A DNA stretch of 64,000 bases, taken from positions 212,584 to 276,583 of the forward strand of contig JACROE010000002.1 of NCBI GenBank assembly GCA_016214565.1, in the 5' to 3' direction. Each line of letters opens with the position of its first letter. The first letter of the stretch is position 1. A model generated the notes under the pieces. It made no database searches and was not told where the DNA came from. It worked only from the letters and a program-made list of their open reading frames with translations. This DNA comes from Candidatus Kerfeldbacteria bacterium (lineage in GTDB: Bacteria > Patescibacteriota > Patescibacteriia > UBA10025 > JAHIVO01). The position numbers were made by a program, and so were the translations under genes. Positions 43,104 through 58,970 of this stretch are shown here, in pieces.

Positions 43104-43158
43104 AAACAAAAAGCACAAATAAAGTCTCGAGGGCACTGCTTTGTGCTACAATATACCC

Positions 43159-45225
43159 ATGCGCATTAGCATCAATACTCCCATTGGAGAATTACCTCGC
43201 GTTGGTCCCGCCCTCACCAAACGCCTCAATAAGCTCGGTATCACAACTGTAGCCGATTTATTATGGTACTATCCATTTCGCTACGAGGACTACAGCACCA
43301 TCACACCCATCGTAGATATTCATACCGACACAAAAGTAACGATTAAGGGGCAGGTGACGTTGATTGCCAATAAGCGAGTATTCCGTCGGCGCATGTTCAT
43401 CACCGAATGCATCATCACCGACGACACCGGCAGTATCAAAGCAGTTTGGTTTAACCAACCATTTATCACCAAGCTGCTGGCCCAAGGTGACCTCGCCTAT
43501 TTTTCTGGAACCGTTGAAATGACTAAATTTGGATTGCAACTAGTCGGTCCACAGTACGAAAAGATTAAAAAGGAACAAACCCATACCGCCCGGATTGTAC
43601 CGATGTACTCATTAACCGAACGCCTGACCGAGAAACAAATCAGGTTTTTGATTAAACTCGTCCTGCCATTGGCCGAACAGATCCCGGACTGGATGCCGGA
43701 ATCTTTGCGCCGTACCCATAAACTCATCCCCCTGCACCAGGCGCTGCGCGAAATTCATTTCCCAACTAATAAAAATACGCTGGTGCAAGCGCGGACGCGA
43801 CTCAAGATAAATGAGCTCCTCCTACTCCAGCTCCAATCGCGGCTGATCCGCGCCGCTCTCCAGAGCAAAACCGCGCCCGTGATACCATTTGACGAGACCC
43901 TAACTAAAACGTTTGTTGGCCGACTCCCCTTTACCCTCACCGACGACCAGCGCCGTGCCGCTTGGACTATTCTCCAGGATTTACAGAAAACCACGCCAAT
44001 GAATCGACTGCTCCAAGGCGATGTCGGTTCGGGAAAAACGGTGGTCGCGGCCATCGCTATGCTCAATGCCAGCCGAGCTCACTTCCAATCAGCCCTGATG
44101 GCACCCACGGAAATCCTCGCGCTCCAACATTACGCGACCATCACCACGATTATTGCACCAGAAGAAGCGCGGATTGCCCTGCTGACCCGCTCAAAAAAAA
44201 TGCTGCGAGGAAAACTTGCCACCAGCGCCACATTCAATCGCGCCATAGAGCAGCATGAAGTAGACATCTTGGTCGGAACGCATGCCCTGATCCAGGATAA
44301 GGTGAAATTCGCCCAACTGGGCTTCATAATTATTGATGAACAGCATCGGTTTGGTGTGGACCAGCGTAAACAGCTCAAACAAAAATCAGACTCAGGAACC
44401 ATACCGCACCTACTGTCCATGACCGCGACGCCAATTCCTCGATCACTAGCTCTGACGGTCTATGGCGATCTGGATGTCAGCACTATTACCCAGATGCCAC
44501 CCGGTCGCAAACCAATTATGACAAAAGTTGTGCCACCTGAAAAAAGAGAAGCGGCCAATGAATTTATTCGAAAAGAAATCAGCGCTGGACGACAAGCATT
44601 TGTCATTTGCCCGCTCATCGAAGAATCGGATAAGCTCGGGGTGAAAGCGGCAACGGACGAACACAAACGACTGCAACAAGACATCTTTCCTGAATTGCAG
44701 ATTGGCCTGCTCCATGGAAAAATGAACATTGAGGAAAAAGAACATGCTATGAACGACTTCAGTGCTGGCAAAACCAATATTCTGGTAGCAACTGCGGTAG
44801 TGGAGGTGGGTATCGACGTGCCCAATGCTTCGGTCATGGTGATTGAGGGCGCTGATCGATTTGGCCTCGCCCAGTTGCACCAGTTCCGCGGACGAGTAGG
44901 ACGGGCCGCTCATCAATCCTACTGTCTCGTCTTTACCGACGCCACTAACGATAAAGCGATCGAGCGGCTGACTGCACTGACCACGACCCAAAATGGATTT
45001 ATTCTTGCGGAAAAAGACCTCGAAATGCGAGGACCCGGTGAAGTATACGGTTTACGGCAGTCGGGTTTCCCTGAACTTAAAATTGCCACCCTGACCGACC
45101 TACCACTCATCATGCTCGCAAAATCAATGGCCGAGGAAATCCTGACTGATGACCCAGATTTGTCAAAAAATGAGCTGCTCGCGAAGCAGCTCAGACAATC
45201 CAGCCGATCAGTCCATCTCGAATAA
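43159..45225 (+). CDS. recG: ATP-dependent DNA helicase RecG
   Basis: N-terminal wedge/OB domain. Helicase motif I GDVGSGKTVVA. DEQHRFGV (motif II). Motifs III-VI present. The C-terminal region is typical of RecG. ORF track begins at 43141 (MCYNIPM...); Met at 43159 (MRISIN) is the likelier start. Confidence 0.85.
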   Translation: MRISINTPIGELPRVGPALTKRLNKLGITTVADLLWYYPFRYEDYSTITPIVDIHTDTKVTIKGQVTLIANKRVFRRRMFITECIITDDTGSIKAVWFNQPFITKLLAQGDLAYFSGTVEMTKFGLQLVGPQYEKIKKEQTHTARIVPMYSLTERLTEKQIRFLIKLVLPLAEQIPDWMPESLRRTHKLIPLHQALREIHFPTNKNTLVQARTRLKINELLLLQLQSRLIRAALQSKTAPVIPFDETLTKTFVGRLPFTLTDDQRRAAWTILQDLQKTTPMNRLLQGDVGSGKTVVAAIAMLNASRAHFQSALMAPTEILALQHYATITTIIAPEEARIALLTRSKKMLRGKLATSATFNRAIEQHEVDILVGTHALIQDKVKFAQLGFIIIDEQHRFGVDQRKQLKQKSDSGTIPHLLSMTATPIPRSLALTVYGDLDVSTITQMPPGRKPIMTKVVPPEKREAANEFIRKEISAGRQAFVICPLIEESDKLGVKAATDEHKRLQQDIFPELQIGLLHGKMNIEEKEHAMNDFSAGKTNILVATAVVEVGIDVPNASVMVIEGADRFGLAQLHQFRGRVGRAAHQSYCLVFTDATNDKAIERLTALTTTQNGFILAEKDLEMRGPGEVYGLRQSGFPELKIATLTDLPLIMLAKSMAEEILTDDPDLSKNELLAKQLRQSSRSVHLE

Positions 45226-46524
45226 CTACAGCACAATATTCCGAATCGCATCGCTGACCGATGACTCAGGGATGACTTGTAATCCCGCCGTAGCGCTCGC
45301 ATCACGCGTGGCGGGCATGACCACGTCGCGGAACCCCAGCTTGGCTGCCTCGGCTAAGCGCTTGTCCAACGTAGCGACTGATCGTATTTCTCCACCCAAG
45401 CCAACCTCTCCCAAGACAATCGTCTCTGGAGCAATGGCTTTATTTTTTAATGCTGAAGCTATGGCAATGCACACGGCCAGATCAACCGCTGGTTCATTGA
45501 CCCGGAAACCGCCGGCCACGCTGACATGGACATCTTGATTTCCCAGAAAGAGGCCTGCTTTCTTCATTAAAACTGCTATCAATACCTGCAAACGATTCAG
45601 ACTAAAACCAACTGCGCGACGCTGAGGGTAGCCAAAATTGGTGCGTGTAACCAACGCCTGTATTTCAACCAAAAACGCACGCGAGCCCTCAACAACGGCG
45701 GTCACGACTGACCCCGGTTGGCTCTTTGATCGTTCGGCGAGGAATAATGCAGAGGGATTCGTCACTTCATGTAACCCATCAGGATGCATGTCAAAAACTC
45801 CAATCTCATTGGTTGAACCAAAGCGGTTTTTCACTGCGCGCAATACCCGAAAGGCATGGTGGCGATCACCCTCAAGGTACAGCACGACATCAACCAAATG
45901 CTCCAGAGAACGAGGGCCAGCTACCGAACCTTCTTTCGTCACATGGCCAATCACAATGATAGGGATATTCAATTCTTTAGCCAGGGCAACCAACCGTCCA
46001 GTCGCGGCGCGCAATTGGCTAACACTTCCCGGCTCACTGGAAACGTCCGGCGTGGCCACGGTCTGAATAGAATCCAGAATGACCAGCCCCGGCGTATGCT
46101 GACGCACCGTACTTTCAATAATATCTAAATCTGTTTCGCCTAAAAATTTTAAGCCTGCCGCGCGCAGGCCCAAGCGCTCAAATCTCCCCTTGACCTGACT
46201 GCCGGATTCTTCGCCGGAAATATACAGTACTGTTTTATTCTGGTCGGCGATACGACCGCCGATCTGGAGTATCAAGGTCGATTTGCCAATCCCGGGATCG
46301 CCACCGAGTAAAATAACGCCGCCTAAAACAATGCCACCGCCTAAAACCCGATCAAATTCTGGCAATGCCGTTGAGAGCCGAACCGCATGCACATCGCTGA
46401 TTTCGGTCAGCGATTGGACAGTGCCTGCCGGAGCGCTCGATCCAGGCCGGGCAATCGATCGACGCACAGTCTGCACTTGCTGTTGTACTGTTCCCCATTG
46501 GCCGCACTCAGTACAACGCCCCAC
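45226..46524 (-). CDS. radA: DNA repair protein RadA/Sms
   Basis: N-terminal C4 zinc finger CTECGQWGTV. RecA-like Walker A GDPGIGKSTLILQ. KNRFG motif (AVKNRFGSTNEIG). C-terminal Lon-protease-like domain. 432 aa. Confidence 0.9.
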   Translation of the reverse strand: MGRCTECGQWGTVQQQVQTVRRSIARPGSSAPAGTVQSLTEISDVHAVRLSTALPEFDRVLGGGIVLGGVILLGGDPGIGKSTLILQIGGRIADQNKTVLYISGEESGSQVKGRFERLGLRAAGLKFLGETDLDIIESTVRQHTPGLVILDSIQTVATPDVSSEPGSVSQLRAATGRLVALAKELNIPIIVIGHVTKEGSVAGPRSLEHLVDVVLYLEGDRHHAFRVLRAVKNRFGSTNEIGVFDMHPDGLHEVTNPSALFLAERSKSQPGSVVTAVVEGSRAFLVEIQALVTRTNFGYPQRRAVGFSLNRLQVLIAVLMKKAGLFLGNQDVHVSVAGGFRVNEPAVDLAVCIAIASALKNKAIAPETIVLGEVGLGGEIRSVATLDKRLAEAAKLGFRDVVMPATRDASATAGLQVIPESSVSDAIRNIVL

Positions 46525-46637
46525 CCACTTGGGGAATTGCGCATCGCAATTTGAGCAGGAATAAATTGTTTTTATTTTAGGAATATGAAAAAAATACTGG
46601 ATTAGCTAGTACCATCATAACACAAGGTGGCGATGCC

Positions 46638-48050
46638 TCAAAAAGTCATAGTACGCAGCACGGCGCAGGTTGGCGTAGTCGCATCTTGCCAGACATAATC
46701 AGGAAATTGGCCAGGATTATTCTTTGACTGAATAATCTTTTCGTAGGCAGCCTGGACTTTGCCCACGTAATTCCTGGTTTCCGCGTAGCCAGGATTCTCC
46801 ACGCACTCCCACCAGGTTTGACCCGGACACGTCACACTCGAACAATTTGCGCCAACTCCGCCATTATAGGCCGCGTTCGCGTATTTATGATCACCATTTT
46901 TACACTGTGTTTGCTCTGGAAAGCACGAAGCTTTTTTCCCACTTTTATAGGTGGCTGACTTGGGGCACGTGCCATTCAACAAATCCCGATACAACTGTGC
47001 GGCAATGTTTATATTAGTCGCTGGATTGAGTAGCTGCTCACAGGTTATCCCGCCTGAATATTTCGCTGCGGTAGATGGCATCAATTGAATGAGTCCACAG
47101 GCGCCAACGGACGATTTTGCCTTTGGGTTACCCGATGACTCGACCAGCATCAGCGCCTTGAGCCAATCACGATCAATGCCGATATTTGCCGCTTCGGCAG
47201 TCAAACAATTATCAAAGGTACTGGTATTTGCGGTTACGGCAAACCCACTTGAAGTTTTTTCCGGCGTTTCTTTGATTTCAAATTCTCGAATCGGAAATTG
47301 TCGTTCAATTTTAATCCCATCAAACTTGACTAAATTTGGATTGATCGTCAAAAGTATGGTATACGAGGCAACCGCAATCAGCAGCCCAATCAGCGCACTG
47401 GAAATAGTCTCTTTGGCGCTCTGAATCTGCGATTGATTGCCAAAAGAGATAATATAGCGGAACCCGCCGTACATCACAAAAACGGTGGAAAGAATACCAG
47501 CCACGCTCACCAGAAATACATAGAGTGCAATAATATATTCCCCGAGTGTCGCACCCGTGATAACGACAGTCCTCCCCTCGTTAAAAATGCTGGAAAATGG
47601 AATAGAGACTTGCGGAATAAACGAAACGAGTCGACGAGGATTATCCTCAGGTGTCGTTTGAGTTTCGCCTCTCCACTGAATACATTGGTCAATTTCAGTG
47701 CAGACCTCTCCGCTTGCGTTGCACACCGTGGCAGCGCAACCCTGCGGCTCATCTGGTTTGACGACAAAACATTGCCCTTCGATTCCCTCATGCGGTGGAC
47801 AGACACAGCAGCGCACGGTCGCGGTCGGCCTTTGCCGACAAGTACTAATCTGATCACAGGGCTGAGATTGCATGACATAACCAAATGCCTCACATTGAGC
47901 AGTCTCTGGATTGGTATGTGAATAGCATTCACCTGGACCTTTGACACAGCATCGTTCAGTTTCAGGCAACCCTTGAGCGCTGACTACACTCGGAGCCACA
48001 ACAAATAACCCCGCTCCGATGATTATCAGCGTGAAAAGATATCGTCGCAT
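46638..48050 (-). CDS. Secreted Cys-rich protein with VirB2/TrbC-pilin-like hydrophobic hairpin module and C-terminal lytic transglycosylase (SLT) domain
   Basis: Signal peptide. Cys-rich 130 aa. Hydrophobic hairpin AGILSTVFVMYGGFRYIISFGNQSQIQSAKETISSALIGLL. SLT motif LMLVESSGNPKAKSSVGACGLIQLMPSTA. Confidence 0.65.
   Translation of the reverse strand: MRRYLFTLIIIGAGLFVVAPSVVSAQGLPETERCCVKGPGECYSHTNPETAQCEAFGYVMQSQPCDQISTCRQRPTATVRCCVCPPHEGIEGQCFVVKPDEPQGCAATVCNASGEVCTEIDQCIQWRGETQTTPEDNPRRLVSFIPQVSIPFSSIFNEGRTVVITGATLGEYIIALYVFLVSVAGILSTVFVMYGGFRYIISFGNQSQIQSAKETISSALIGLLIAVASYTILLTINPNLVKFDGIKIERQFPIREFEIKETPEKTSSGFAVTANTSTFDNCLTAEAANIGIDRDWLKALMLVESSGNPKAKSSVGACGLIQLMPSTAAKYSGGITCEQLLNPATNINIAAQLYRDLLNGTCPKSATYKSGKKASCFPEQTQCKNGDHKYANAAYNGGVGANCSSVTCPGQTWWECVENPGYAETRNYVGKVQAAYEKIIQSKNNPGQFPDYVWQDATTPTCAVLRTMTF
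47316..47558 (-). repeat. Paralogous module copy 1 (approx. 240 bp, approx. 80% nt identity to 49970-50212)
   Basis: Encodes the shared FVMYGGFRY(I/V)ISFGNQSQIQSAKETISSALIGLL segment. DNA similarity is visible directly (ggaaatagtctctttggcgctctgaatctgcgattgattgccaaa vs ggaaatcgtttctttggcactctgaatctgtgactgattgccaaa). Confidence 0.75.
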
Positions 48051-48052
48051 AA

Positions 48053-49318
48053 CTATGGCAATTGGATAGTGTACACGTTTCCGGTATTGGCGTCGGTAAA
48101 GTATAACCGATTGTCATCATTGGAAACCACTAAATTCACAACGGTATACTCCTTGTTGCCAGTCGAGAGCGTGGGCAAAGCAACCAGGGTGCGCAAGCCT
48201 GAGTTAGTATCTATTTTATAAATTAAGTCATTGGTATTAGTAGCAGCTGATGGGACTATCCCAGTACCTTCAGGCAAAAATTTTGGTACCGCACAATAAA
48301 CAAATGACTCGCTATGCGTGAATGAACATTTTGACGACCATGTTTGTAATCCTAATTCAATGGTATTGCCTCCCGTAGTATCCCCACTCGCATCAACCAG
48401 AAATAACTCAGGGTTATAGCGAGAGCTGGCATTATAGGTACTGTACAGTAATTGTTTGCCGTCGGGTGACCAAGTGCCTTCGAAGCCACGCCCGGTGGTG
48501 GTGATTGATTTGAAATTTTCTCCCTGGGTGCCAATCAAAAATATTTCCTGACTAGTTCCATTTTGCGCCTCACGGAAAGTAGCTACCACTTGGCTCGAGG
48601 GAGACCAATTAATATCAACGTTTTGGCTCTGGTCGCCGAGCGGTTCAATCGCCTCGACCTGAGAACCGTCGGAATTGGAAATCGCTAGCCAGCGCTCATC
48701 CTCGATGTCTGACTCATTTTTAAAGCCTAATTTCTGGCCATTGGGAGAAAATTCAACGTCATTCCAGGTGCGCGGAATCGTCAGCTGATTATGCAAATCA
48801 AAATCGTAGATGATTTTCGTGTCATCGGGAAACGTAATCAACGCTTTATTTTCAACTGGTGACCACTCAATCGTATCGGCCTGGGGGAATATTTGATCGG
48901 AGAGTGCAACTTGCTTACCTAGTGCATCAAGCATAAAAAACTGCCCGGTATCTTTATCGTAAAAACGAATCCCGTTGCCGTCCGGGGTCGTATTCACGCC
49001 AAGGGCATTGGCTCGCGCCACAATATCAGCAATAGTTTCACCTCCCTGAGCTACCGGGCTTGGCCCGGTATTCGTATTGGCCGCTGGTGCGGTATTCGTG
49101 AAGCGATTTGTATTTGTGACGTTGGTAGGAGGAATATTTACTGCGCCATTAGAGTTTGGCAATACGCCACCATTCGTTACTTGATTCGTATTCTGGTTTG
49201 CATTATCATTTCCATTTCCCGAGGTAAAAATGTCGCGCAAAAAAACAAAATATATCAGCGCGCCAAACACGATGACAATCAAGATAAAGAGCGTAATGAA
49301 TAATAGTCGTCGATTCAT
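48053..49318 (-). CDS. TolB-like beta-propeller protein (PD40/WD40-like repeats), membrane-anchored
   Basis: N-terminal TM. PD40-type blades (WSPDGKQLLYST, FSPNGQKLGF, INWSPSSQVVATF). 421 aa. Confidence 0.6.
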   Translation of the reverse strand: MNRRLLFITLFILIVIVFGALIYFVFLRDIFTSGNGNDNANQNTNQVTNGGVLPNSNGAVNIPPTNVTNTNRFTNTAPAANTNTGPSPVAQGGETIADIVARANALGVNTTPDGNGIRFYDKDTGQFFMLDALGKQVALSDQIFPQADTIEWSPVENKALITFPDDTKIIYDFDLHNQLTIPRTWNDVEFSPNGQKLGFKNESDIEDERWLAISNSDGSQVEAIEPLGDQSQNVDINWSPSSQVVATFREAQNGTSQEIFLIGTQGENFKSITTTGRGFEGTWSPDGKQLLYSTYNASSRYNPELFLVDASGDTTGGNTIELGLQTWSSKCSFTHSESFVYCAVPKFLPEGTGIVPSAATNTNDLIYKIDTNSGLRTLVALPTLSTGNKEYTVVNLVVSNDDNRLYFTDANTGNVYTIQLP

Positions 49319-49324
49319 AGTTTC

Positions 49325-50404
49325 TTATTGACAAAAATACTGCACGAATCCGCCCACGATACTCTGGTCAGGCGGACGAATATCACCGGGGCCAAAAAAA
49401 TTAAACCTGGCTTGGGGCATAATGACACATGATTTCCCCTCTTCACATACTTTGCCAATCAGCAAATTATGAGGAACTGTTTTTTCCTTAATCATCCCAC
49501 AGTCAAGATCGTTTAAAATATGCGCATTATAAATAAGATTATCAGTAGGATTTAATATCGGCCATTGATCAATGCATTCAAATGTAGACTTGCCATCTTC
49601 CTCCACGGCAGCACACACCTTATTTTCCCCACACGTAATACCAATACACTCATCCGTTTGTCCTTCATGCCAAATGAACCCGCAGGTTTGAAACAATTTC
49701 TCCTTGCAAACTTTACGATCCCCATAACTCAAAACGCAACCATATGTTTTTTCTCGGCCGTCATCAGCAATGACCTGACAGGTTTCCCCGTCAGTGCAAT
49801 TTGAGCCCTTATACACACACTGTTTACTGTCTGCGCTCTCAATCACCCCCGTACGTTCGACGGTTCCGACGTCACCACAGTTCACCGAGCCCTCAACTTT
49901 CGGCGTTGCGGTTCCCTCTCGATCCTCGCACCAACCCGCTCCAAATTCTGCGATCGGAGTAAAATCAATCACATCAAAACGAGTCAAATTCGGATTGATA
50001 AAATACAGTATGGTGTATGAACTGACCACCAATAATAACCCAATCAATGCGCTGGAAATCGTTTCTTTGGCACTCTGAATCTGTGACTGATTGCCAAATG
50101 ATATGACATACCGAAATCCTCCATACATAACGAAAACCGTGGTCAAGATACCAGCCACCCCCGCAAAATACCGATAAATGCCGACAATGTAGCAGCCAAG
50201 ATTTTTTATGTAGTGCCCACCGTCATGATTAACGGTCACTCCGGGTATTTCAATACTGAGCTTAATTGCCTTGGTAAAATCAGTTATGGCGCATGGATCA
50301 GTCTGATTGGCTCCTTGGGCAAATGTAGTCAATGGCACAATGACCATCGCGGTTACGATAGCTATCCTGAAAACAATGCGATGTGATTTGAGCCAACGAA
50401 CCAT
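49325..50404 (-). CDS. Secreted Cys-rich protein carrying the same VirB2/TrbC-pilin-like hydrophobic hairpin module (paralog of the 46638-48050 N-region)
   Basis: Signal peptide (TTFA/QGA). AGVAGILTTVFVMYGGFRYVISFGNQSQIQSAKETISSALIGLL. Cys-rich C-terminal domain. 359 aa. Confidence 0.65.
   Translation of the reverse strand: MVRWLKSHRIVFRIAIVTAMVIVPLTTFAQGANQTDPCAITDFTKAIKLSIEIPGVTVNHDGGHYIKNLGCYIVGIYRYFAGVAGILTTVFVMYGGFRYVISFGNQSQIQSAKETISSALIGLLLVVSSYTILYFINPNLTRFDVIDFTPIAEFGAGWCEDREGTATPKVEGSVNCGDVGTVERTGVIESADSKQCVYKGSNCTDGETCQVIADDGREKTYGCVLSYGDRKVCKEKLFQTCGFIWHEGQTDECIGITCGENKVCAAVEEDGKSTFECIDQWPILNPTDNLIYNAHILNDLDCGMIKEKTVPHNLLIGKVCEEGKSCVIMPQARFNFFGPGDIRPPDQSIVGGFVQYFCQ
49970..50212 (-). 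repeat. Paralogous module copy 2 (see 47316-47558)
   Basis: Near-identical 45-aa core and approx. 80% nucleotide identity to copy 1. Confidence 0.75.
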
Positions 50405-50419
50405 AACTTAAAAGGGAGA

Positions 50420-51073
50420 CTACAATTGATTAATCAAGTCCTCGGGTGATACAACACTATTCGTGGGGGATGATTCCGGTGCTGCAATACCCTTCTCCTG
50501 CCATGAAGCAGTATCCACGAGCCACCCCTCCCCTTCATAGGCTAATCTCAGAATAATATCCTGATAGTATATATCCTGACTTTCCGTCGTATCACCAGTT
50601 TCGATCCGCTGAGTGGATAATCGAATAGTCGCATTGCCACTGTCCTGAGCGGTAATTGACGTGCTCAGCACTTTAGTCACCACCTCGGTGAATGCCCCGC
50701 TGGTGGCCTGGCTCGACTGCCGTCGCACAAAATCATCTGCCGATTGCTGCATCCGAGCGGTCATATACGGCTTCAGATTAGTAATATTCACAAATTCTGA
50801 TTCTGAGGTATAGCTCCCATACCGCTCAGTAAAAAATTGGGCCAAGCGTGTCGCATCCACGGTCACCGGATCCACCGCCGTCCCCGGATTGGTATTTACA
50901 TTCGTGGTCACGTCGACCACTGCCACATTCGCCGCTTGATTTGTCGTATTCGTCGGCGTCACGGCATCATCGGCCGACTGAAAATAAAACCAAGCCAATA
51001 CCCCCAGTAACACCACGATGGCACCGCCTGCTATCAAGAGATACTGGCGCTGAGTTAAGTTGATTCGTGCCAT
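50420..51073 (-). CDS. Membrane-anchored protein, possibly VirB8-like (NTF2-like periplasmic domain)
   Basis: N-terminal TM (LLIAGGAIVVLLGVLAWFYF). Thr/Asn-rich linker. approx. 120-aa C-terminal globular domain. Position between the VirB4-like and pilin-like genes. Confidence 0.3.
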   Translation of the reverse strand: MARINLTQRQYLLIAGGAIVVLLGVLAWFYFQSADDAVTPTNTTNQAANVAVVDVTTNVNTNPGTAVDPVTVDATRLAQFFTERYGSYTSESEFVNITNLKPYMTARMQQSADDFVRRQSSQATSGAFTEVVTKVLSTSITAQDSGNATIRLSTQRIETGDTTESQDIYYQDIILRLAYEGEGWLVDTASWQEKGIAAPESSPTNSVVSPEDLINQL

Positions 51074-51104
51074 AAAATATATAGATTAACCTTTAATAAT
51101 TGAC

Positions 51105-53003
51105 TTAGGCCGATGCCTCGGCTCCTTCGCGCTGCGAAGCGACAAACTCGCGTTTGGCCTGCTCTATTTCCAGCAACTGGCGCGGATCAGAGGTAATGAT
51201 CTGATCCTCCGTGTATGAAGCAACCACTTTTATAGCGGCGTGCTTCGAGCCGGCAAAGAAAATGCCTTCACCCACCCCGCACTCAAGCAGGAGATATTTC
51301 TCTCCTTCGGTCAGCAGGAATGTCTTGGCAATCAGATCAATCGCCGCTGGTGACTGTTTCATCAGCAACTGAATCGCGGAGTTATTCACGATTGCCTGTC
51401 CATACGGCGATCGCAAAAAGTCATTCACGTCCTGGGTAATAGTCGTGACACCCAGGTAATATTTACGACATCGCTTCACCAGAGCAAAAATAAATTTCGC
51501 GGAATCTTCCTGCTGCATCAACCACCACGCTTCATCAATGACCATCAGGCGTTTCTTCAATTGGGAACGTACCGTATTCCAGATATAGGAAACGATCAAC
51601 TGGATACCGACGGGCTTCAATTCATCCTCAAGATCACGCACTGAGAACACCACTAACTGGTTATTCATTTCCACGTTGGTCGGGTTATTGAGTAAACCAG
51701 CAAACGTTCCTTCCGTATATTTCTTGAGGCGGGTCACCAATTGGTCAGCACCGACCATGCCCTCGAGCACTTCTTGGAAATCCTGGAAGAGCGGCGGTTC
51801 GACGCGAGTCAAATCTGTTTCTGCCGTAATATCTTTCTTGGCATAGGTCTCAATCAAAGCTCGATCAATGATGGAGTCTTCCTCGTGGGAAAATTGACCC
51901 AGCATCAGCCGAAGCAGACCCTTCAGAGTGATGACCGCCGACCGAATAATATCCGACGTTTTTTCATCCTTGCGCGTCGGCCGCGGCAAATCAAACGGAT
52001 TAATCTTACTCTCTGAACTCAATGAAATGTTAATATAGGTACCGCCCACGGCATCGGATAAGTATTTGTACTCCATTTCTGGATCAATCACGATGACGTC
52101 AGTGCCCAGCATCATGCTGCGCAATATTTCCAGCTTAACGGCGTAGCTTTTACCAGCACCGGAGGTGGCGAAAACCACCGAGTTCGCATTTTGCAGAGAA
52201 AATCGGTCAAATAATATAAGGCTATTGTTATGACGATTAATTCCGTACAGGATACCGTTGTCGCTGGTCAACTCGGACGAAATAAAAGGGAACGATGAGG
52301 CAACCGGCGAACTGGCCATATTGAAGGTGATATTCAATTCATCGGTCGCAAGCGGCAAGGTGGACATGAAGCCCTGCTCCGCTTGATAGAGCACCCGCTT
52401 GGTATACACCAGTCGCGAGCCAAACAGCGATTCAACTTTTTCCGTTATCTTATCCAGCTCATCTTTTTGTTGTGCGTACATGGTAATATACAGCGCGTAC
52501 TGGAAAAACCGTTCAATGCCCTGCGTCAGGTCATCGCGTAGCTTTTCAATATCACGAAGCGCCGTTTCACGGATCGGATCGCGGGGGGCACCTTTTTCCG
52601 CATCGGCTAATATTTGAGCTTCCAGGGCGCCCACTTTATTGCGCAATTGCTTCAAAATAATTTCCGAATTAACCGGATAGAAAAACATGGCAATGTCCAG
52701 TGGAACGTTCAGATTGATCACCGGCGCAAACCATCCGACACGGATATAGCGTGGATATGCCACAACAAATATGGTCCGGACAAACTGGGAGCCCAATTCC
52801 AGATAACGCGATTCAATCCTCATTGATGCCGGCGCAATCAAATCGCGCACCGTCACCACGCCGCGCCGATACGCTTTTTCTGATTCGAGGAGTGTCTTTT
52901 TTTCCTCAAGTTGTTCGCGCGCCAGCTGCTCCTTTTCCTGAGGAGTTAATTCGGGTGGTCGTTCAGTTGGGATGGATTGCGTAGCACGATAGAGTTCAAC
53001 CAT
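51105..53003 (-). CDS. virB4: VirB4/TrbE/CagE-family type IV secretion ATPase (C-terminal ATPase portion, 632 aa)
   Basis: Walker A VVFATSGAGKSYAVK. Walker B RLMVIDEAWWLM. DUF87/VirB4-type arrangement with conserved Arg/Gln residues in the C-terminal region. Confidence 0.8.
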   Translation of the reverse strand: MVELYRATQSIPTERPPELTPQEKEQLAREQLEEKKTLLESEKAYRRGVVTVRDLIAPASMRIESRYLELGSQFVRTIFVVAYPRYIRVGWFAPVINLNVPLDIAMFFYPVNSEIILKQLRNKVGALEAQILADAEKGAPRDPIRETALRDIEKLRDDLTQGIERFFQYALYITMYAQQKDELDKITEKVESLFGSRLVYTKRVLYQAEQGFMSTLPLATDELNITFNMASSPVASSFPFISSELTSDNGILYGINRHNNSLILFDRFSLQNANSVVFATSGAGKSYAVKLEILRSMMLGTDVIVIDPEMEYKYLSDAVGGTYINISLSSESKINPFDLPRPTRKDEKTSDIIRSAVITLKGLLRLMLGQFSHEEDSIIDRALIETYAKKDITAETDLTRVEPPLFQDFQEVLEGMVGADQLVTRLKKYTEGTFAGLLNNPTNVEMNNQLVVFSVRDLEDELKPVGIQLIVSYIWNTVRSQLKKRLMVIDEAWWLMQQEDSAKFIFALVKRCRKYYLGVTTITQDVNDFLRSPYGQAIVNNSAIQLLMKQSPAAIDLIAKTFLLTEGEKYLLLECGVGEGIFFAGSKHAAIKVVASYTEDQIITSDPRQLLEIEQAKREFVASQREGAEASA

Positions 53004-53004
53004 A

Positions 53005-53682
53005 CTATTCGATATTGAGTTTGCTCACGTCGACTAATTGTTGCTGGTCGTATGTGTCAGGGTTGTACGTATTATAATACAATTCGATCAAGCTCTGCGT
53101 GTCTAGCTGGACCGCTTTCAAACCAATCGAACTTAAACCGTCAATAATGTACTCAATGCGCTTCTGCATCTCAATCCGATTTTTCTCGAATTTCTTTTGT
53201 TTAATGGTGATAACGTTTGTTGGCGACAGCACCTCTTTCACTCGGCTAAAAAACCCCTTGGCTTTTATATTGCCGGCGGCGTACGGCACAACGATATAAA
53301 ATCGCTTGCTCATGATGTCTGCCAGTGAAACCAATTCCTGAATATACTGGCGATACTCCCGGGTTTGCACTTTGAGCAGCTCATTGGTCTGCTCTTTCTC
53401 AACCGTTTTCAGCCGCTCCAGGTAATCGTCAATATTTAGTTTCCGAGATTGAATCAATATTTGAAGGGGAAATTCTATCGTATTCAAAAATTGAACATAC
53501 CCTTGAATAACCGCATTTTGTTCGTCTTCAGATTTCAAAGCAAAATTGATCGACGAAACGAGTACAACTGCACGCAGCGTCCCATCTTTCAGGATAACCG
53601 TGTTATCCTTGATTTCAAGAATGCTCATGTATTGCTGAGTAGCGGCCGCGAGATTATTTTTACTGATTTTTTCTTCAGCCAT
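53005..53682 (-). CDS. Soluble 225-aa protein translationally coupled to virB4; candidate split-off VirB4 N-terminal domain
   Basis: 1-nt gap to the virB4 start. 225 + 632 = 857 aa, matching full-length Gram-positive VirB4 (e.g. approx. 800 aa). No TM. Confidence 0.35.
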   Translation of the reverse strand: MAEEKISKNNLAAATQQYMSILEIKDNTVILKDGTLRAVVLVSSINFALKSEDEQNAVIQGYVQFLNTIEFPLQILIQSRKLNIDDYLERLKTVEKEQTNELLKVQTREYRQYIQELVSLADIMSKRFYIVVPYAAGNIKAKGFFSRVKEVLSPTNVITIKQKKFEKNRIEMQKRIEYIIDGLSSIGLKAVQLDTQSLIELYYNTYNPDTYDQQQLVDVSKLNIE

Positions 53683-53687
53683 GATGA

Positions 53688-54119
53688 TTAATTATTTGGC
53701 TCAAGTCCTTCCTGATACGCCCCGCCTGTATCGACCACGAGCGATAACTCGGTCAATCGCGATTCAGTTAAGCGTTGCTTCTTGGAGGGAGGGGGCGGTG
53801 CGGGCTTTTCCTTCTCCTCTTTAACACTGCTATTATCATACTGCTTATGCCAGATGGTCAGGGTCGGCCGACGCAATGTTTGCATCATGTTTAATAAAAA
53901 ATGGTGAAACGGTCGCCCATTAATTTTCGCAAAAGCAAATACACCAGTCAGAGCAAAAATGAGTACGCCTTCAATGGCGGCCGCCCAAAAGTTGGCGAGT
54001 TTAAAAACAATAAAAATCATGCCGGCACCGATTAAAAAAGTGATGAACTGGCGCACCGTTAAGGGGCCAATAATTTTATTCTCAACATCGAGGAATTGAG
54101 GAACAATAAATTGCTGCAT
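53688..54119 (-). CDS. PrgI/VirB3-like small two-TM protein
   Basis: IIGPLTVRQFITFLIGAGMIFIVF, then a second TM (VLIFALTGVFAFA), as in PrgI-family proteins preceding VirB4. 143 aa. Confidence 0.55.
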   Translation of the reverse strand: MQQFIVPQFLDVENKIIGPLTVRQFITFLIGAGMIFIVFKLANFWAAAIEGVLIFALTGVFAFAKINGRPFHHFLLNMMQTLRRPTLTIWHKQYDNSSVKEEKEKPAPPPPSKKQRLTESRLTELSLVVDTGGAYQEGLEPNN

Positions 54120-54121
54120 AC

Positions 54122-55453
54122 CTAAGTGACGAGTCGCGCATTGAGCGCATTAATGGCAAAAAATTCTTCCGTCAAGAGAAATGGCTGCTGACTTTCGCGA
54201 CGTTTTCTCACAATCTCACCAATAGGCACATTCTGCTCCATGCTTTCTCGGCCAATCGCCAAGTACAGTGCAAAAAGAGGCGAAGTACGCCAGGCCTGAA
54301 CTGCTTGCATCCGCATTTCCCACGACTCCTCCTCCAGTAATTCAATTTTTTCATACACTTTATCCGCTGATTCTGAGGGATTGGTACCCAAGCGGCGGAA
54401 TTCCTGCAAATCAACTTGATGAATTTCTTCAACAGGTCCAACCACGCCCGCAGGCTGGCGGATGTCAATCATTTGTGGTTTGTCCGGACGCATCGTCTGA
54501 CGAATGCGCGGCATCGCCTGATCAGACTGACCATACAATTCATGAGCAGGCGCAACCGGCCGTGGTGTCTCGGAAATAGGTACAGCCGGACGAACTGGTG
54601 GTCGAGGAACTGGCGATACGATTGGCGCGGGCGGTATCGCCGCGGCGGGTGGCTTCATAGCTGCCAATGCAGCCGCCATATCAGCTGGCATGGTGGGTGT
54701 AACCGGCGAGACAGGTGCGGCACCGCCTGGGCGGGGTACAAAAGCAGGTGGAGCAGCCGCATACATACCCCGCTCTGGAGCAGGCTGCGACGCTGGTTTT
54801 TTAATCACTGGAGTTTGAGCGGCAGGCTTACCGTGGCGCATTGTGTCTGACTCAACCATGACCGATTCAATAACCGCAGTAGCCACTGGAGCAGCGAAAC
54901 CCAGCCCACCAATCTTCGTCTGCCGTTGCAGCACGTCTTCTACTTCGATGGCGCTGCGCAAACCACGGATGAAAGACTCAAGCACCTTCGCAAATCGTTT
55001 TTGCATCAGATCGCTATCAAATGTCAGATTGTGCTTGCGAATGACTCGTTCAACGACTGCGTCAACGGTTTGCGCAGGATCTGAGGCGGGCTGCGTCACC
55101 ATTTTCTGCAATTCAGCGGCATGCCGTTTAATCTCCTCTTCATCACTTTTATCAATAAATGCCGCGGGTGCCGGGCCTAAATCTTTAAGCGGCGGACTCG
55201 GGCGAAATGGCGTGGGTGAGGGAGTCGGCACTACCGACTTTGCTGCTGGCTGGGCAGCAACCGGTGTAGCAACGATTTTTGGCGTTGGCGAAACTGACGC
55301 GGGCTTTGGAGCTACTGCCGGAGGCGGTGGGGTGGGCAGCGAACCTGAATCTACATCAATTGATTCATTATGATGCACACGAGAAAAGGTGCCTCCTGGG
55401 TCTTTAACCAGGAAGCCGTCTTGCCACTCATTCATTAATTGATCATCAGCCAT
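54122..55453 (-). CDS. Pro/Ala-rich hypothetical protein (443 aa), no TM
   Basis: Long PxP tracts (PTPPPPAVAPKPASVSPTPK...; PPAAAIPPAPIVSPVPRPPVRPAVP) with a conserved-looking approx. 90-aa C-terminal domain. Confidence 0.6.
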   Translation of the reverse strand: MADDQLMNEWQDGFLVKDPGGTFSRVHHNESIDVDSGSLPTPPPPAVAPKPASVSPTPKIVATPVAAQPAAKSVVPTPSPTPFRPSPPLKDLGPAPAAFIDKSDEEEIKRHAAELQKMVTQPASDPAQTVDAVVERVIRKHNLTFDSDLMQKRFAKVLESFIRGLRSAIEVEDVLQRQTKIGGLGFAAPVATAVIESVMVESDTMRHGKPAAQTPVIKKPASQPAPERGMYAAAPPAFVPRPGGAAPVSPVTPTMPADMAAALAAMKPPAAAIPPAPIVSPVPRPPVRPAVPISETPRPVAPAHELYGQSDQAMPRIRQTMRPDKPQMIDIRQPAGVVGPVEEIHQVDLQEFRRLGTNPSESADKVYEKIELLEEESWEMRMQAVQAWRTSPLFALYLAIGRESMEQNVPIGEIVRKRRESQQPFLLTEEFFAINALNARLVT

Positions 55454-55464
55454 TGTTTGTTTTT

Positions 55465-56418
55465 TTATAACGTCGTGATTGGACGAGTTTGCGTAATATA
55501 GAATTTATTGTGTGACCACGCCCATTCGATATCCTGTGGCGTACCATAGTGCTTCTCGATTGTTGCACACAATCGTGCTATTTTCATAATCTGAGCACTC
55601 TTCAATTTCTGTTTCTCGCGTTTTGCTAGCGGAACCATTACTTCACGGGTTCCCTGCGTTCCCTTGCGCTGTATCATCCGTTCTTGCCGTGAGACAGCAA
55701 TATCGAGAATAGCATCCGATTTCCGATCGACGACGTAGGTATCGGGCGTAATGCGTCCGGAAACAACCGCCTCTCCCTGCCCCCAGCCAGCCTCGATAAC
55801 CATATGCTGGCGATTCTTTGTCACGGGATGCGCCGTAAAGGTTATACCCGCCACTTCAGAATCAATCATTTCCTGCACCACCACGGCGACTGATACGGGA
55901 ATGGTATGTAATTTCTTCTCAAAACGATAAAAAATTGCTCGTGGCGTAAAAAGAGAGGACCAGCAGGTTTGTATCGTTTTCAGTAATTGTGGTTTTCGTA
56001 TGAATAAATACGACTCTAATTCCCCTGCCCATGATGCCGTCGAAGAATCCTCGGCTGTCGCAGATGAGCGGACGGCGACCGTAGTATTATGTAATTTTGT
56101 AAATGCGGCGAACACCTCTCGCGCTAACTCAGGGGGGAATGATGCGTTTTGAATTTTCCTTCGTAGTTCACGGGAGGCTCGGTTGATACTGGCTAAAACT
56201 TTCGGATCGACCGTGCGTAACATGCGGCTGGCGAGACTATCAATCCCCGTATCACGCATAAATTGATCAAATGCGGTACGCAATACCACAAAACCCTGAG
56301 GTACCGGGATGTGATGTGCGGTCATCTCGCCAAGATTTGCCCCTTTGCCGCCCGCGAGATTGACGCTCTTCTTATCGAGCTTGCTGAAGGGGGATACAAA
56401 GGCTTTCGATGACTTCAT
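55465..56418 (-). CDS. Stand-alone PPDK_N domain protein (ATP-grasp nucleotide-binding domain of PEP synthase / pyruvate phosphate dikinase / rifampin phosphotransferase)
   Basis: LAGGKGANLGEM...VAVRSSATAEDSSTASWAGELESY...DIEWAWSHNKFYITQTRPIT covers the complete PPDK_N signature. 317 aa. No His-swivel or PEP-binding domain attached. Confidence 0.8.
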   Translation of the reverse strand: MKSSKAFVSPFSKLDKKSVNLAGGKGANLGEMTAHHIPVPQGFVVLRTAFDQFMRDTGIDSLASRMLRTVDPKVLASINRASRELRRKIQNASFPPELAREVFAAFTKLHNTTVAVRSSATAEDSSTASWAGELESYLFIRKPQLLKTIQTCWSSLFTPRAIFYRFEKKLHTIPVSVAVVVQEMIDSEVAGITFTAHPVTKNRQHMVIEAGWGQGEAVVSGRITPDTYVVDRKSDAILDIAVSRQERMIQRKGTQGTREVMVPLAKREKQKLKSAQIMKIARLCATIEKHYGTPQDIEWAWSHNKFYITQTRPITTL

Positions 56419-56575
56419 GATGATCGATTATGCTTAAAAAAATCATATAATGAGCATTCAAAATCATGGCTACATTATAGCATAATTTGCCGATAAAATC
56501 AAACCACGAAAATCATCGGCAAATATCTAAGTGATTGTTGAAGAAAACGCAAAAAAATGGTAAAATAACGTTACT

Positions 56576-57403
56576 ATGGCTGATATGGAGGTCAAGAAAA
56601 TCAAAGTAGCCCAGCAAAGAGAAACCGTGGCCTCACCTTTTAGTTCAACAATATCTCCTGCCACAACGGAGCCCCCCAAGCCCATGGGGAGTCCATTGCG
56701 CATGCCCAGCAATAATATCTCAATACCGGTAGCAATGCCTTCGGGACAAACCGAAAGAGAAAGCCAGTGGAGTCAAACGTTATCACAGGAACGGGTTAAC
56801 CAATTCAAACAGTCAAAAAAAATGACTGGCACTATCGGTCGCATGCTGGGTAATTTAGAAAACCCTGACTTAGATATGGAAGATAATCAAAATCTCCAAT
56901 ATCTAAAAAAAATGCAGCATTCTCTGACCAAGGGATCAAAAGTAAATGCCATTAAAACTGGTGCACAAATCGGTATAGACCTCCGCCACCGCATCGCCGC
57001 CGGAGGAATGCAAGGATTTTTATTTGCTTTGTCATTGGCGATCATTAAAGACTTCTGGGACTTCGGCACTATTTGGTTTACGATCGGGTTCGCTGGCACA
57101 CTCTTCAATATCATGATTACTACCGCACTTCTATTTGTGGTCATGTTTCAAGGAATCTGGTTTCGTCGCTGGTTACTAAAAAAAATGTGGAGTAGGTTTC
57201 TAGGCGCTATCATCCTGGAATTTATTCCTATACTTAATTTTTTTCCCTGGTGGATTATCAGCGTACTCTTAGTTAAACAAGCAGCTGATAAACGACTCAA
57301 GAAAATGGAAGCGGCTGGAGATCAGCATGACCAAAATATGGAGGAACTCAAAGCGGCTGAAGAGGATTCAGGGGAACAGGCCCAATACAATCAAGCCGCC
57401 TAA
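56576..57403 (+). CDS. Hypothetical membrane protein (3-4 TM helices in C-terminal half); the only plus-strand gene in this block
   Basis: GMQGFLFALSLAIIKDFWDFGTIWFTIGFAGTLFNIMITTALLFVVMF...FLGAIILEFIPILNFFPWWIISVLLV. Start uncertain. Confidence 0.5.
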   Translation: MADMEVKKIKVAQQRETVASPFSSTISPATTEPPKPMGSPLRMPSNNISIPVAMPSGQTERESQWSQTLSQERVNQFKQSKKMTGTIGRMLGNLENPDLDMEDNQNLQYLKKMQHSLTKGSKVNAIKTGAQIGIDLRHRIAAGGMQGFLFALSLAIIKDFWDFGTIWFTIGFAGTLFNIMITTALLFVVMFQGIWFRRWLLKKMWSRFLGAIILEFIPILNFFPWWIISVLLVKQAADKRLKKMEAAGDQHDQNMEELKAAEEDSGEQAQYNQAA

Positions 57404-57443
57404 TATTTTAGGTGACCCATATCCGTATAGCACATTATGAGTG

Positions 57444-58970
57444 CTATATTTTTTTTACAATTCCTTTAGTTGCATCCACTTCGACCCGGTCGCCGGTCTT
57501 CAGTACACGAGTGGCAATCATGGTACCGATCACGCAGGGAATTCCTAATTCACGTGAGACAATAGCGGCATGGGTCGTAATCCCACCCTGGTCGGTAATA
57601 ATCGCCGCCGCCTTTTTCATCAGTGGGACAAACTCAGGTGTGGTATTATTAGTTACCAAAATATCTCCCTTATTAAAGGGGCCAGGCTGATGAGCATTCC
57701 GTACGAGCCGAACGACCCCTCGCGCTATTCCTGGGCTGGCAGCAACGCCGGCAATTAAGTCCGCAGCACTGTTTCGTGGTTCGAAATCTTTCTCGTGTAC
57801 AAACCGCGACACAGTTCGACCATGATATAATACATACCCACGTCGAGTACCGTAAACAAACGTTCGGAGGCGGCGGCTCCGCAATTCCTGAGGATCAAAA
57901 TTACGATCTAAAAAAACCTTCGCTACTTCTGGCTCCACAACGCTATACATCTCATTCAAATCCAAGCCAACCCGCTTGCCCATCTCAGAAAAAATTAATC
58001 GGAGAAAGTGACTGAAGCGAATGAGGCACATCTTGCGATAATCTTGCATGTGCGTCATTTGTTCGGAAAAATACACCACATGTGACAGCCAAGGATTATG
58101 GAGTCTGTGTAATAATTTGTTTTTCTCTATTCGATTTTTTTTCAACACCGTAGCCAGATCCCCCATGAATGGCTGCCGAACGAGTCGAAAAAGTTTCGAT
58201 GCAAAATAGCGTTCAGTGAGCACCTTAGCGTAATAATTATTCTCAACCCAATAATACAGTCGGGCATGTCGCTTAAGTGCCTTCCAAAACCTTGGAGTAC
58301 GCTGAAGAAATCTAAAAAAATCAGGAAACGTTCGCCACTGTCCCCGAATTTTGCGAGCGAGGCGTTGTAATGCGATCTCCTCCTCATTGGTATATGAAGG
58401 GATAGTGGGCGCTGTCAGAATTGTAATAGCCTTTTGGCGCCTGGCCGCATCAGCAATATGGCGACTAATAAATTGGCTCAACCAATCTTCAGTTCCTGCA
58501 GTCAAACAGCAATCAGCCATATATCCTTCAGCGGCCTGGTCCATATTTGCCCAATATAGCTTATGATACAATGCATAAAGCTGCTGATCAGTAAGTATAC
58601 GCACGTCAATTGCTTCTGCCGCAGCATAGGCAGCGAGATTTGCGTCAGCATGCCGCTCCCACCGTCGATAAAATTTACGGAAAATCGCTAAGCTCCGTTT
58701 GCAACCACGCACGAAATAATCCCGCACCAAAGCTAAATCTCGCAAATCCCAATAGTGAAATAATTCCGTTTGCTCAGATGGCATAGTGCGGATAAATAAA
58801 TAGCTTTGTCGAATTGCAGGTGAATACCGCTGATTTTGCAACCATACCCCGGCATGGGTACCTTGCATAAAAATGGTATGTAAGAATCCTGGGTAATTTT
58901 TTTCCAGCCATAAATGACGAGGATTTCTCGTTCGAATAGTATATGGAGATAACCGCCTGTACTGTTTCAT
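57444..58970 (-). CDS. Paralog 1 (508 aa): helical N-terminal domain plus C-terminal PEP-utilizing enzyme mobile (phosphohistidine swivel) domain
   Basis: C-terminus GDILVTNNTTPEFVPLMKKAAAIITDQGGITTHAAIVSRELGIPCVIGT...GDRVEVDATKGIVKKI. Confidence 0.8.
   Translation of the reverse strand: MKQYRRLSPYTIRTRNPRHLWLEKNYPGFLHTIFMQGTHAGVWLQNQRYSPAIRQSYLFIRTMPSEQTELFHYWDLRDLALVRDYFVRGCKRSLAIFRKFYRRWERHADANLAAYAAAEAIDVRILTDQQLYALYHKLYWANMDQAAEGYMADCCLTAGTEDWLSQFISRHIADAARRQKAITILTAPTIPSYTNEEEIALQRLARKIRGQWRTFPDFFRFLQRTPRFWKALKRHARLYYWVENNYYAKVLTERYFASKLFRLVRQPFMGDLATVLKKNRIEKNKLLHRLHNPWLSHVVYFSEQMTHMQDYRKMCLIRFSHFLRLIFSEMGKRVGLDLNEMYSVVEPEVAKVFLDRNFDPQELRSRRLRTFVYGTRRGYVLYHGRTVSRFVHEKDFEPRNSAADLIAGVAASPGIARGVVRLVRNAHQPGPFNKGDILVTNNTTPEFVPLMKKAAAIITDQGGITTHAAIVSRELGIPCVIGTMIATRVLKTGDRVEVDATKGIVKKI

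Follow-up and report, generated by a model that had tools for sequence, protein, structure and literature searches.

A dikinase ATP-grasp gene at the head of a type IV secretion operon in Candidatus Kerfeldbacteria: a probable juxtaposition of two systems

In a 64-kb stretch of a Candidatus Kerfeldbacteria metagenome-assembled genome (class ABY1), analysed as a whole and called the window below, a gene encoding a stand-alone ATP-grasp (PPDK_N) protein directly precedes eight genes of a type IV secretion system (T4SS). What is the function of such a protein at the head of a secretion operon? A preliminary description of the locus considered it an unprecedented component of a secretion machine that might itself be incomplete or repurposed. 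The results presented here point to a different answer. It is likely that two systems abut at this locus, the known T4SS of ABY1 bacteria and a dikinase whose ATP-grasp gene is a co-transcribed passenger, and that no new secretion component is involved.

The table of open reading frames (ORFs) of the window contains nine consecutive minus-strand ORFs, from 56418 down to 46638, with intergenic gaps of 11, 2, 5, 1, 31, 15, 6 and 2 nt. Both the ends and the gaps agree exactly with the nine-gene array described initially. However, two groups of genes were overlooked in that description: a tenth gene of the T4SS cluster (56576-57403, plus strand) and a series of PEP-utilizers paralogs further upstream. 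Compact spacing is the norm in this genome: the gap is at most 31 nt in 68% of the 34 same-strand neighbour pairs of the window, with a median of 10 nt. Thus gap sizes alone are weak evidence.

The first gene of the array (55465-56418, minus strand, 317 aa) is the sole PPDK_N gene in the window. The protein matches PF01326 at profile positions 2-311 of 328 (E=7.7e-95). Its sequence matches in PDB are PEP synthase (PEPS; 8a8e, 1e-63), the ATP-grasp domain of the Listeria rifampin phosphotransferase (RPH; 5hv6, 6e-57) and HpeI (9GOJ, 6e-47), the ATP-grasp subunit of the dikinase HpeHI, and it scores under the cut-offs of all full-length PEPS and RPH models of NCBIfam. It thus resembles HpeI, PpsB and CreI, components of two-component dikinases. 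ATP-grasp domains of the PPDK_N family pyrophosphorylate a histidine of a swivel domain (PMC12167813). No swivel/His domain was found in any T4SS protein of the locus with Pfam, NCBIfam or motif searches. The product of the second gene was considered as a hidden swivel partner and rejected, as it has neither the GGxTxHAA motif nor a match to PF00391.

Proteins of the partner type are encoded nearby. They are called PU proteins here and consist of an RPH-like substrate-binding domain and a C-terminal PEP-utilizers His-swivel domain. Their genes lie 1 kb upstream of the PPDK_N gene on the same strand, with one divergent gene in between. Four of them are complete: PU508 (57444-58970, 508 aa), a 361-aa protein (58967-60052), PU474 (60055-61479, 474 aa) and a 523-aa protein (62109-63680), all on the minus strand and all with a C-terminal PF00391 swivel. 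A fifth minus-strand PU gene is cut by the window end at 64000, its swivel domain being encoded at 63699-63998. The PF00391 matches at the C-termini have E-values from 1e-17 to 1e-26. The proteins carry the catalytic-histidine motif GGxT(C/T/S)HAAIVSRE, in which T431, H433, A434 and A435 are invariant in 80 sequences. Pairwise identities of the paralogs are 27-32% across the greater part of the proteins, and about 39% for the two copies with the shortest match. The AlphaFold2 (AF2) model of PU474 has a pLDDT of 94, and RPH is its only near-full-length structural match. HpeH, the subunit of HpeHI that carries the substrate and swivel domains, was likewise reported to align near full length with RPH alone.

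The association of the two gene types is not limited to the window. Among 80 PPDK_N-seeded loci from GTDB, taken with flanks of up to 10 kb per side, 65 to 67, depending on counting, contain at least one swivel-domain gene, and some contain up to 7-8. Swivel-only ORFs number 212 in these loci and PPDK_N ORFs 82, and the orientation is the same as that of PPDK_N for 214 of 215 swivel ORFs. A swivel-domain gene lies within 300 nt of PPDK_N in 23 of the 80 loci. Natural fusions of PPDK_N with PU modules occur in three loci, one of them a 1508-aa ORF in which PPDK_N is followed by three substrate/swivel modules. Taken together, the co-occurrence, the co-orientation, the Rosetta-stone fusions, the predicted fold and the characterised homologs make the swivel proteins the probable functional partners of PPDK_N.

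The characterised homologs are the two-component dikinases HpeHI, CreHI and PpsAB, studied experimentally (PMC12167813). As in these enzymes, the ATP-grasp subunit of the window stands alone, the partner combines an RPH-like domain with a C-terminal swivel containing GGxT(C/S)HAA, and the PEP/pyruvate TIM-barrel domain is absent. The system also differs from them. One ATP-grasp gene corresponds to at least five diverged partner paralogs; it stands apart from these, as the leading gene of a T4SS operon; the family is spread over Patescibacteria and apparently DPANN archaea; and no aromatic-catabolism genes are nearby. The Listeria enzyme RPH-Lm (5HV1/5FBS) has the same three modules, ATP-grasp, substrate-binding and His swivel, but in one polypeptide, whereas here they are split, and the identity of the substrate domains is about 14-15%. 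A single-chain RPH can thus be rejected, as the system is split and NF041857 gives 280 bits against a cut-off of 999. PEP synthase and PPDK can be rejected as well: PF02896 is absent from PPDK_N and from every PU protein, and the full-length PEPS models give about 290-310 bits with PPDK_N and about 65-135 bits with each PU protein, against cut-offs of 598-740. The reading as an unexplained stand-alone secretion component is therefore not supported, given a homolog in HpeI and genes of the partner type 1 kb upstream on the same strand. No description of this one-to-many split dikinase family was found in a literature search, and nothing was found in it on PPDK_N or PEP-utilizers proteins in CPR (candidate phyla radiation) bacteria or DPANN.

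Loci of the split-dikinase family include L082:9944-14467, L079:9989-12031 and L056:3-1799. Some homologs in the family are labelled Woesearchaeota and Nanoarchaeota. A 207-aa gene lies among the PU paralogs of the window (61485-62108, minus strand) and has HAD-annotated homologs; the protein itself matches no Pfam or NCBIfam family, and its positional counterpart in L005 (215-820) has HAD hydrolase domains. The gene recurs inside PU clusters of other loci (L028:13863-14477, L071:6728-7339). It may encode a phosphatase paired with the dikinases.

The remaining genes of the array form a recognisable T4SS. The assignments were made with Pfam and NCBIfam models and, for one gene, with a structural model; they agree with all domain labels given earlier, including the VirB8-like fold, although the match to the TolB propeller is partial. 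The family distributions given below were obtained by iterative HMM searches of 168 loci, of which 104 contain VirB4 and 64 do not.

Gene 2 (54122-55453, minus strand) encodes a 443-aa protein rich in proline (13.5%) and alanine (12.6%). It has no match in Pfam or NCBIfam and no predicted transmembrane (TM) segment, and therefore is probably cytoplasmic. The conserved blocks are a GFLVKD motif, residues ~95-190 and the C-terminal 110 aa. Each of the 46 members of this family lies upstream of a co-oriented virB4, and the 64 loci without VirB4 contain no member. Gene 3 (53688-54119, minus strand) encodes a PrgI/VirB3-like membrane protein of 143 aa with a TM segment at residues 20-49. It matches PF12666 with 35.8 bits against a cut-off of 27 (E=1.2e-8) and, weakly, TcpE; the family is present in 98 of the 104 VirB4 loci.

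Genes 4 and 5 have to be considered together. Gene 4 (53005-53682, minus strand, 225 aa) encodes a TrsD/TraC-like protein corresponding to a separate N-terminal domain of VirB4. It matches positions 92-266 of the NCBIfam model VirB4_plasma (E=2.9e-12), and its match to the TrsD model (E=1.3e-4) is below the TrsD cut-off. Its homologs carry the TraC-like domain PF26593, and the family is present in 101 of the 104 VirB4 loci. Genes 2, 3 and 4 are confined to these loci. Gene 5 (51105-53003, minus strand, 632 aa) encodes a VirB4 ATPase of the CD1110, or MPF-FATA, type. It passes the curated CD1110 VirB4 model NF045971 with 359.4 bits against a cut-off of 325 (profile positions 153-730 of 752), so that the assignment to VirB4 made initially stands. 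It also matches P-loop_TraG (1e-29), and it covers positions 286-893 of VirB4_plasma, complementing the portion covered by gene 4. Both the Walker A (TSGAGKS) and the Walker B (VIDEAW) motifs are visible. Judged by these complementary matches, VirB4 is split between genes 4 and 5. The VirB4 homologs (120 among the matches listed) are ~620-680 aa long and 74-93% identical, and a separate TraC-like gene precedes virB4 in every context examined. Since the lengths are uniform and the preceding gene is always present, the split is not a frameshift artefact. Patescibacteria proteins in this identity range number in the thousands.

Gene 6 (50420-51073, minus strand, 217 aa) has no match to sequence families in Pfam and NCBIfam. 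Its AF2 model, built from a shallow alignment of 7 sequences, contains a TM helix, a disordered linker and an NTF2-like domain, with pLDDT of about 85-95 over residues 70-191. The best Foldseek matches are CagV (6iqt) and PrgL (7aed), with E=2.8e-5, followed by TraE, TrwG and VirB8; the matches to the VirB8 family span E-values from 2.8e-5 to 3e-3, with TM-scores (target) of 0.6-0.7. According to the model, this is a VirB8/PrgL-like bitopic protein with the NTF2 fold.

Genes 7 and 9 both encode VirB2-like pilin modules. Gene 7 (49325-50404, minus strand, 359 aa) matches PF18895 with 29.7 bits against a cut-off of 26.6 (E=6.8e-7); gene 9 (46638-48050, minus strand, 470 aa) matches this T4SS_pilin family slightly under the cut-off, with 25.8 bits (E=1.1e-5). 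In addition, gene 9 contains an SLT lytic transglycosylase domain (E=3.7e-17), the VirB1-like peptidoglycan hydrolase of the system. The pilin modules of the two proteins (49943-50317 and 47280-47672, minus strand) are 53% identical over 131 aa. The Cys-rich domain follows the pilin module at the C-terminus in gene 7, whereas in gene 9 it precedes the module at the N-terminus. The arrangement suggests a duplication followed by domain shuffling. Gene 8 (48053-49318, minus strand, 421 aa), between them, encodes a membrane-anchored beta-propeller with PD40/TolB-like repeats (PD40, E=1.1e-4; TolB propeller model, partial match with E=3.7e-10) and an N-terminal TM segment. Its homologs are conserved downstream of virB4.

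The overlooked tenth gene (56576-57403, plus strand) encodes a 275-aa membrane protein and is transcribed divergently from the PPDK_N gene. Its assignment to the T4SS cluster is based on the distribution of its family: each of the 48 members comes from a locus with VirB4, the 64 loci lacking VirB4 having none. The position of the gene varies. Usually, as in distant T4SS loci, it is directly downstream of virB4; it comes after the VirB8-like gene in some ABY1 loci; and in the subclade of the window it is divergent, upstream of the operon. Examples are L133:11767-12387, L043:7521-8345 and L008:5850-6854. No Pfam or NCBIfam match was found for the protein, and none in Pfam for ten distant homologs. 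The family has 2-4 C-terminal TM helices and a hydrophilic N-terminus of variable length. It is a candidate for a missing T4SS component, for instance a minimal VirB6-like channel subunit.

Pfam searches of all window ORFs of at least 110 aa found neither VirB6/TrbL nor a VirD4/TcpA coupling protein, as the preliminary description had noted. The TrbL proteins of L003 and L008, used as tblastn queries, gave no match in the window either. In relatives the TrbL gene lies farther upstream, adjoining a gene for a giant protein, and thus VirB6 may be encoded beyond the window here.

Such a system is not new. A 2025 survey (Quinonero-Coronel et al., PMC12102498) describes T4SSs of Patescibacteria with a VirB4 related to MPF-FATA, with TrsD, which is homologous to the N-terminal part of VirB4, as the commonest neighbour of virB4, and with PrgI/VirB3 and VirB2-like pilins of PF18895. 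According to the same survey, VirB8/PrgL homologs are nearly confined to the class ABY1, relaxases are rare, and the coupling protein gene is mostly distant from virB4, t4cp not having been found essential in Southlakia epibionticum. The genes comF, recG and radA occur in the ABY1 loci, for which coordination was suggested. The present locus is alike in the following features: the MPF-FATA-related VirB4 with an adjacent TrsD-like gene, PrgI/VirB3, PF18895 pilins, a VirB8/PrgL-like protein, no relaxase, and comF, recG and radA close by. It is unlike in that VirB6 and VirD4 are not within the 64 kb and in that the survey names neither the 275-aa family nor the Pro-rich first gene as a component. 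The order Pro-rich protein, PrgI, TrsD-like protein, VirB4, VirB8-like protein, pilin, propeller, in some loci pilin-SLT, then radA and convergent recG recurs in loci of Kerfeldbacteria, 'Nomurabacteria' and other Patescibacteria. Given this agreement in gene content, genes 2-9 and the 275-aa gene are to be assigned to the chromosomal T4SS already described from Patescibacteria and ABY1, rather than to an incomplete or repurposed oddity.

The earlier recognition of a monoderm-type T4SS-like operon is supported. With the MPF-FATA systems (Prg/Pcf of pCF10, Trs of pGO1, CD1110 of CTn2) the locus shares the VirB4 type, the PrgI-like protein, the PrgL/VirB8-like fold, the TrsD-like protein and a peptidoglycan hydrolase. 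On the other hand, VirB2-like pilin modules are lacking in MPF-FATA systems, the hydrolase here is an SLT domain fused to a pilin module, and no relaxase, type IV coupling protein (T4CP) or PrgH/VirB6 is seen in the window. The present system is also chromosomal and vertically conserved.

How, then, is the dikinase gene connected to the secretion genes? A candidate sigma-70-like promoter, TTGATT-17-TATAAT with a TG extension (56474-56502, minus strand, consensus match 10/12), lies upstream of PPDK_N, where a divergent intergenic region of 157 nt is found, and ranks among the four best sites of a consensus scan across 45-64 kb. A separating promoter or terminator between PPDK_N and the downstream genes was scanned for as well; no such site was found in the 11-nt junction with gene 2 or in the 3' part of PPDK_N. 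Thus PPDK_N is probably the first cistron of the T4SS transcription unit. A terminator-like hairpin near the 5' end of gene 2 (55416-55391, less than 60 nt into the gene) might act as an attenuator between PPDK_N and the T4SS genes; this was rejected, as its T-tail is weak and it is unconserved in 12 of 14 orthologous loci: it is seen in the window and partly in L013, and is absent from the 12 other orthologs. On the other side, a hairpin followed by a run of seven T, resembling an intrinsic terminator, follows the 275-aa gene (57425-57449, plus strand). The PU508 gene is convergent, and its final codons (VKKI-stop) are overlapped by this element. Read on the minus strand, the hairpin has no T-run after it, and hence read-through from the PU genes into PPDK_N, antisense to the 275-aa gene, is conceivable.

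The junction is restricted to a part of the T4SS family. PPDK_N heads the T4SS in 6 of the 52 VirB4-seeded loci with enough upstream sequence, namely in 5 of 9 with VirB4 identity of at least 80%, in 1 of 11 at 70-80% and in 0 of 32 below 70%. Conversely, virB4 is found within 5 kb on the same strand in 15 of 67 PPDK_N-seeded loci of GTDB species with enough downstream sequence. In total, 22 linked loci from at least 16 GTDB species were collected. The linked copies all fall into one clade in an approximate neighbour-joining tree of PPDK_N, and a single unlinked member (L014, no adjacent T4SS) is nested in this clade. In the VirB4 tree, likewise approximate and made by neighbour joining, the linked loci fill one large clade that also contains six loci without PPDK_N (L001, L008, L089, L093, L095, L003). 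These patterns are read as one ancestral juxtaposition, long retention and several losses. Conservation of the linkage, proposed initially as a check, is therefore found as far as the tight junction in this clade is concerned, but not in general, since most T4SS loci have no PPDK_N. The conserved operonic position of PPDK_N in one ABY1 clade is unreported in the literature searched, and PPDK_N as a first cistron is not mentioned in the text of PMC12102498 or in its available supplements. In L054, L056, L059, L062, L064 and L085 the PU/PPDK_N cluster adjoins recG, with radA and the T4SS propeller beyond it on the opposite strand. That the two gene sets are neighbours outside the linked clade hints at an older shared neighbourhood rather than a single local insertion.

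The likely explanation thus combines two machines. In the T4SS, the PrgI/VirB3-like and VirB8-like proteins would anchor the split VirB4 at the membrane. The SLT domain would open the peptidoglycan, and genes 7 and 9, the two with VirB2-like pilin modules, would provide a filament or conduit that passes through the wall and extends outside the cell. Lineage-specific parts may be the propeller, the Pro-rich protein and the 275-aa protein. Its role is probably contact-dependent exchange with a host, not conjugation, by analogy with S. epibionticum, in which the T4SS is reported to be essential for growth on the host (Wang et al. 2023, as cited in PMC12102498 and PMC12857230). The T4SS and pilus together have been regarded, speculatively, as a conduit for host exchange in a 2025 review (PMC12857230). 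In the dikinase, PPDK_N would bind ATP and pyrophosphorylate the catalytic swivel histidine of the PU proteins, and each of these would transfer the beta-phosphate onto the small molecule that its RPH-like substrate domain has bound, so that one ATP-grasp gene would serve several PU paralogs. We suppose that an ancient rearrangement in one ABY1 subclade brought PPDK_N to a site ahead of gene 2 and behind the promoter region of the T4SS, and that PPDK_N would for this reason be transcribed from that region.

Several observations weigh against this explanation, and most of them would fit an alternative in which PPDK_N is a true T4SS accessory, energising or regulating assembly or phosphorylating a component or transported substrate, or else is the rate-limiting dikinase subunit, controlled by the T4SS promoter so that host contact would turn on dikinase activity. 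When adjacency in an operon is conserved, this is usually read as a hint of functional coupling. Here the gap between the stop codon of PPDK_N and the start of gene 2 measures -26 to +45 nt in 18 of the 22 linked loci (82-137 nt in the other 4), and this junction has been kept while PPDK_N of the linked lineages diverged to only 51-62% identity to that of the window, the respective VirB4 identities being 72-94%. About 70% of the loci in the linked VirB4 clade, which is sizeable, retain PPDK_N. Since the 275-aa gene belongs to the T4SS cluster, PPDK_N of the window has genes of that cluster on either side, and it is parted from the PU genes by this divergent gene with its own terminator-like hairpin. 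The lone promoter-like site is upstream of PPDK_N and none precedes gene 2. However, all linked cases go back to one event, and so conservation of the junction is inseparable from inheritance and gives no independent support to a coupling. PPDK_N is missing from most T4SS loci and from nested relatives in the linked clade; the T4SS thus persists without it, and these losses argue against a structural role. L014 shows the converse, a PPDK_N of the linked clade with no T4SS beside it. Finally, the PPDK_N family acts through a His-swivel partner, which only the PU proteins provide, and it is with PU genes that PPDK_N co-occurs and fuses across Patescibacteria. An accessory role is therefore rather unlikely, although it is the strongest of the alternatives.

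Next to it stands the possibility that the placement of PPDK_N is adaptive, expression of the host-contact machine gating a battery of RPH-like dikinases in which one ATP-grasp protein serves at least five modules. We regard this as doubtful. If true, the dikinases might phosphorylate small molecules at the host interface, trapping scavenged host metabolites inside the epibiont or inactivating host antibiotics or phenolics. In CPR bacteria, a modular system of small-molecule kinases would then be tied to an apparatus for secretion or uptake.

A further alternative, ranking after these two and also improbable, concerns the T4SS itself, which could be a ComB-like machine for DNA uptake linked to recombination rather than a conduit for host exchange. 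The genes next to the operon are relevant here. The radA gene (45226-46575, minus strand) is directly downstream of the T4SS and is convergent with recG (43141-45225, plus strand), both belonging to the conserved context, and a comF-family gene is at 40590-41258 (plus strand; TIGR00201, E=2e-23, profile positions 1-188 of 190, below the cut-off). In other lineages radA also follows the last T4SS gene, with a gap of ~10 nt in L003, and the co-localisation in ABY1, with a suggestion of coordination, is noted in PMC12102498. However, radA has a promoter-like site of its own (46641-46614, consensus scan) and is present in only 12 of 36 VirB4-seeded loci with enough flank, and no DNA-processing or coupling protein is encoded in the window. 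Moreover, in S. epibionticum the T4SS is essential, whereas viability does not need comEC-dependent competence (PMC12857230).

The radA ORF as listed starts with GTG at 46524 and lacks the first zinc-ribbon CxxC. The in-frame upstream codons (46522-46608, minus strand) encode (I)KTIYSCSNCDAQFPKW, and there is no ATG, GTG or TTG after the stop at 46608-46606. Given the missing CxxC and the absence of these upstream codons, the start is probably ATA (46575) or ATT (46584).

It is very improbable that the cluster is part of an integrated conjugative element with PPDK_N as cargo: VirB4 does belong to a conjugation-type family (CD1110/MPF-FATA), but Pfam searches of the window ORFs found no relaxase, T4CP or integrase, the GC content is even throughout the window, the radA/recG context is common across lineages with VirB4 74-93% identical, and relaxases are rare in the published survey (PMC12102498).

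Other genes of the window include a type IV pilus cluster (3450-35587, minus strand) with an N_methyl pilin, PilC/T2SSF, a response regulator, PilB/T2SSE, a PilO-like protein and PilM. Five large proteins (12293-35587; 1318, 1230, 791, 490 and 3934 aa) precede the pilus genes in the order of transcription. Each has one N-terminal TM segment, and there are almost no family matches, BNR/sortilin-type repeats being found only in the 1318-aa protein. They were considered as VirB6 candidates and rejected, as they have a single TM segment each and belong with the pilus cluster. ClpC is also encoded in the window. Together with the pilus cluster, the giant surface proteins, comF, recG and radA, it fits a patescibacterium. 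Two proteins of the window are 100% identical to HZC01_01315 and HZC01_01360 of a Candidatus Kerfeldbacteria MAG.

Taken alone, the T4SS is another well-resolved ABY1 example of a described system and matters little by itself. The strictly T4SS-linked 275-aa family, the split VirB4 and the VirB8-like fold help to complete the parts list of a machine essential for epibiotic growth. The conserved operon of PPDK_N and T4SS genes in one clade provides a concrete hypothesis of co-expression. Dikinases with one ATP-grasp protein and many substrate modules in Patescibacteria, and apparently in DPANN archaea, may bear on the way in which these symbionts handle small molecules of their hosts.

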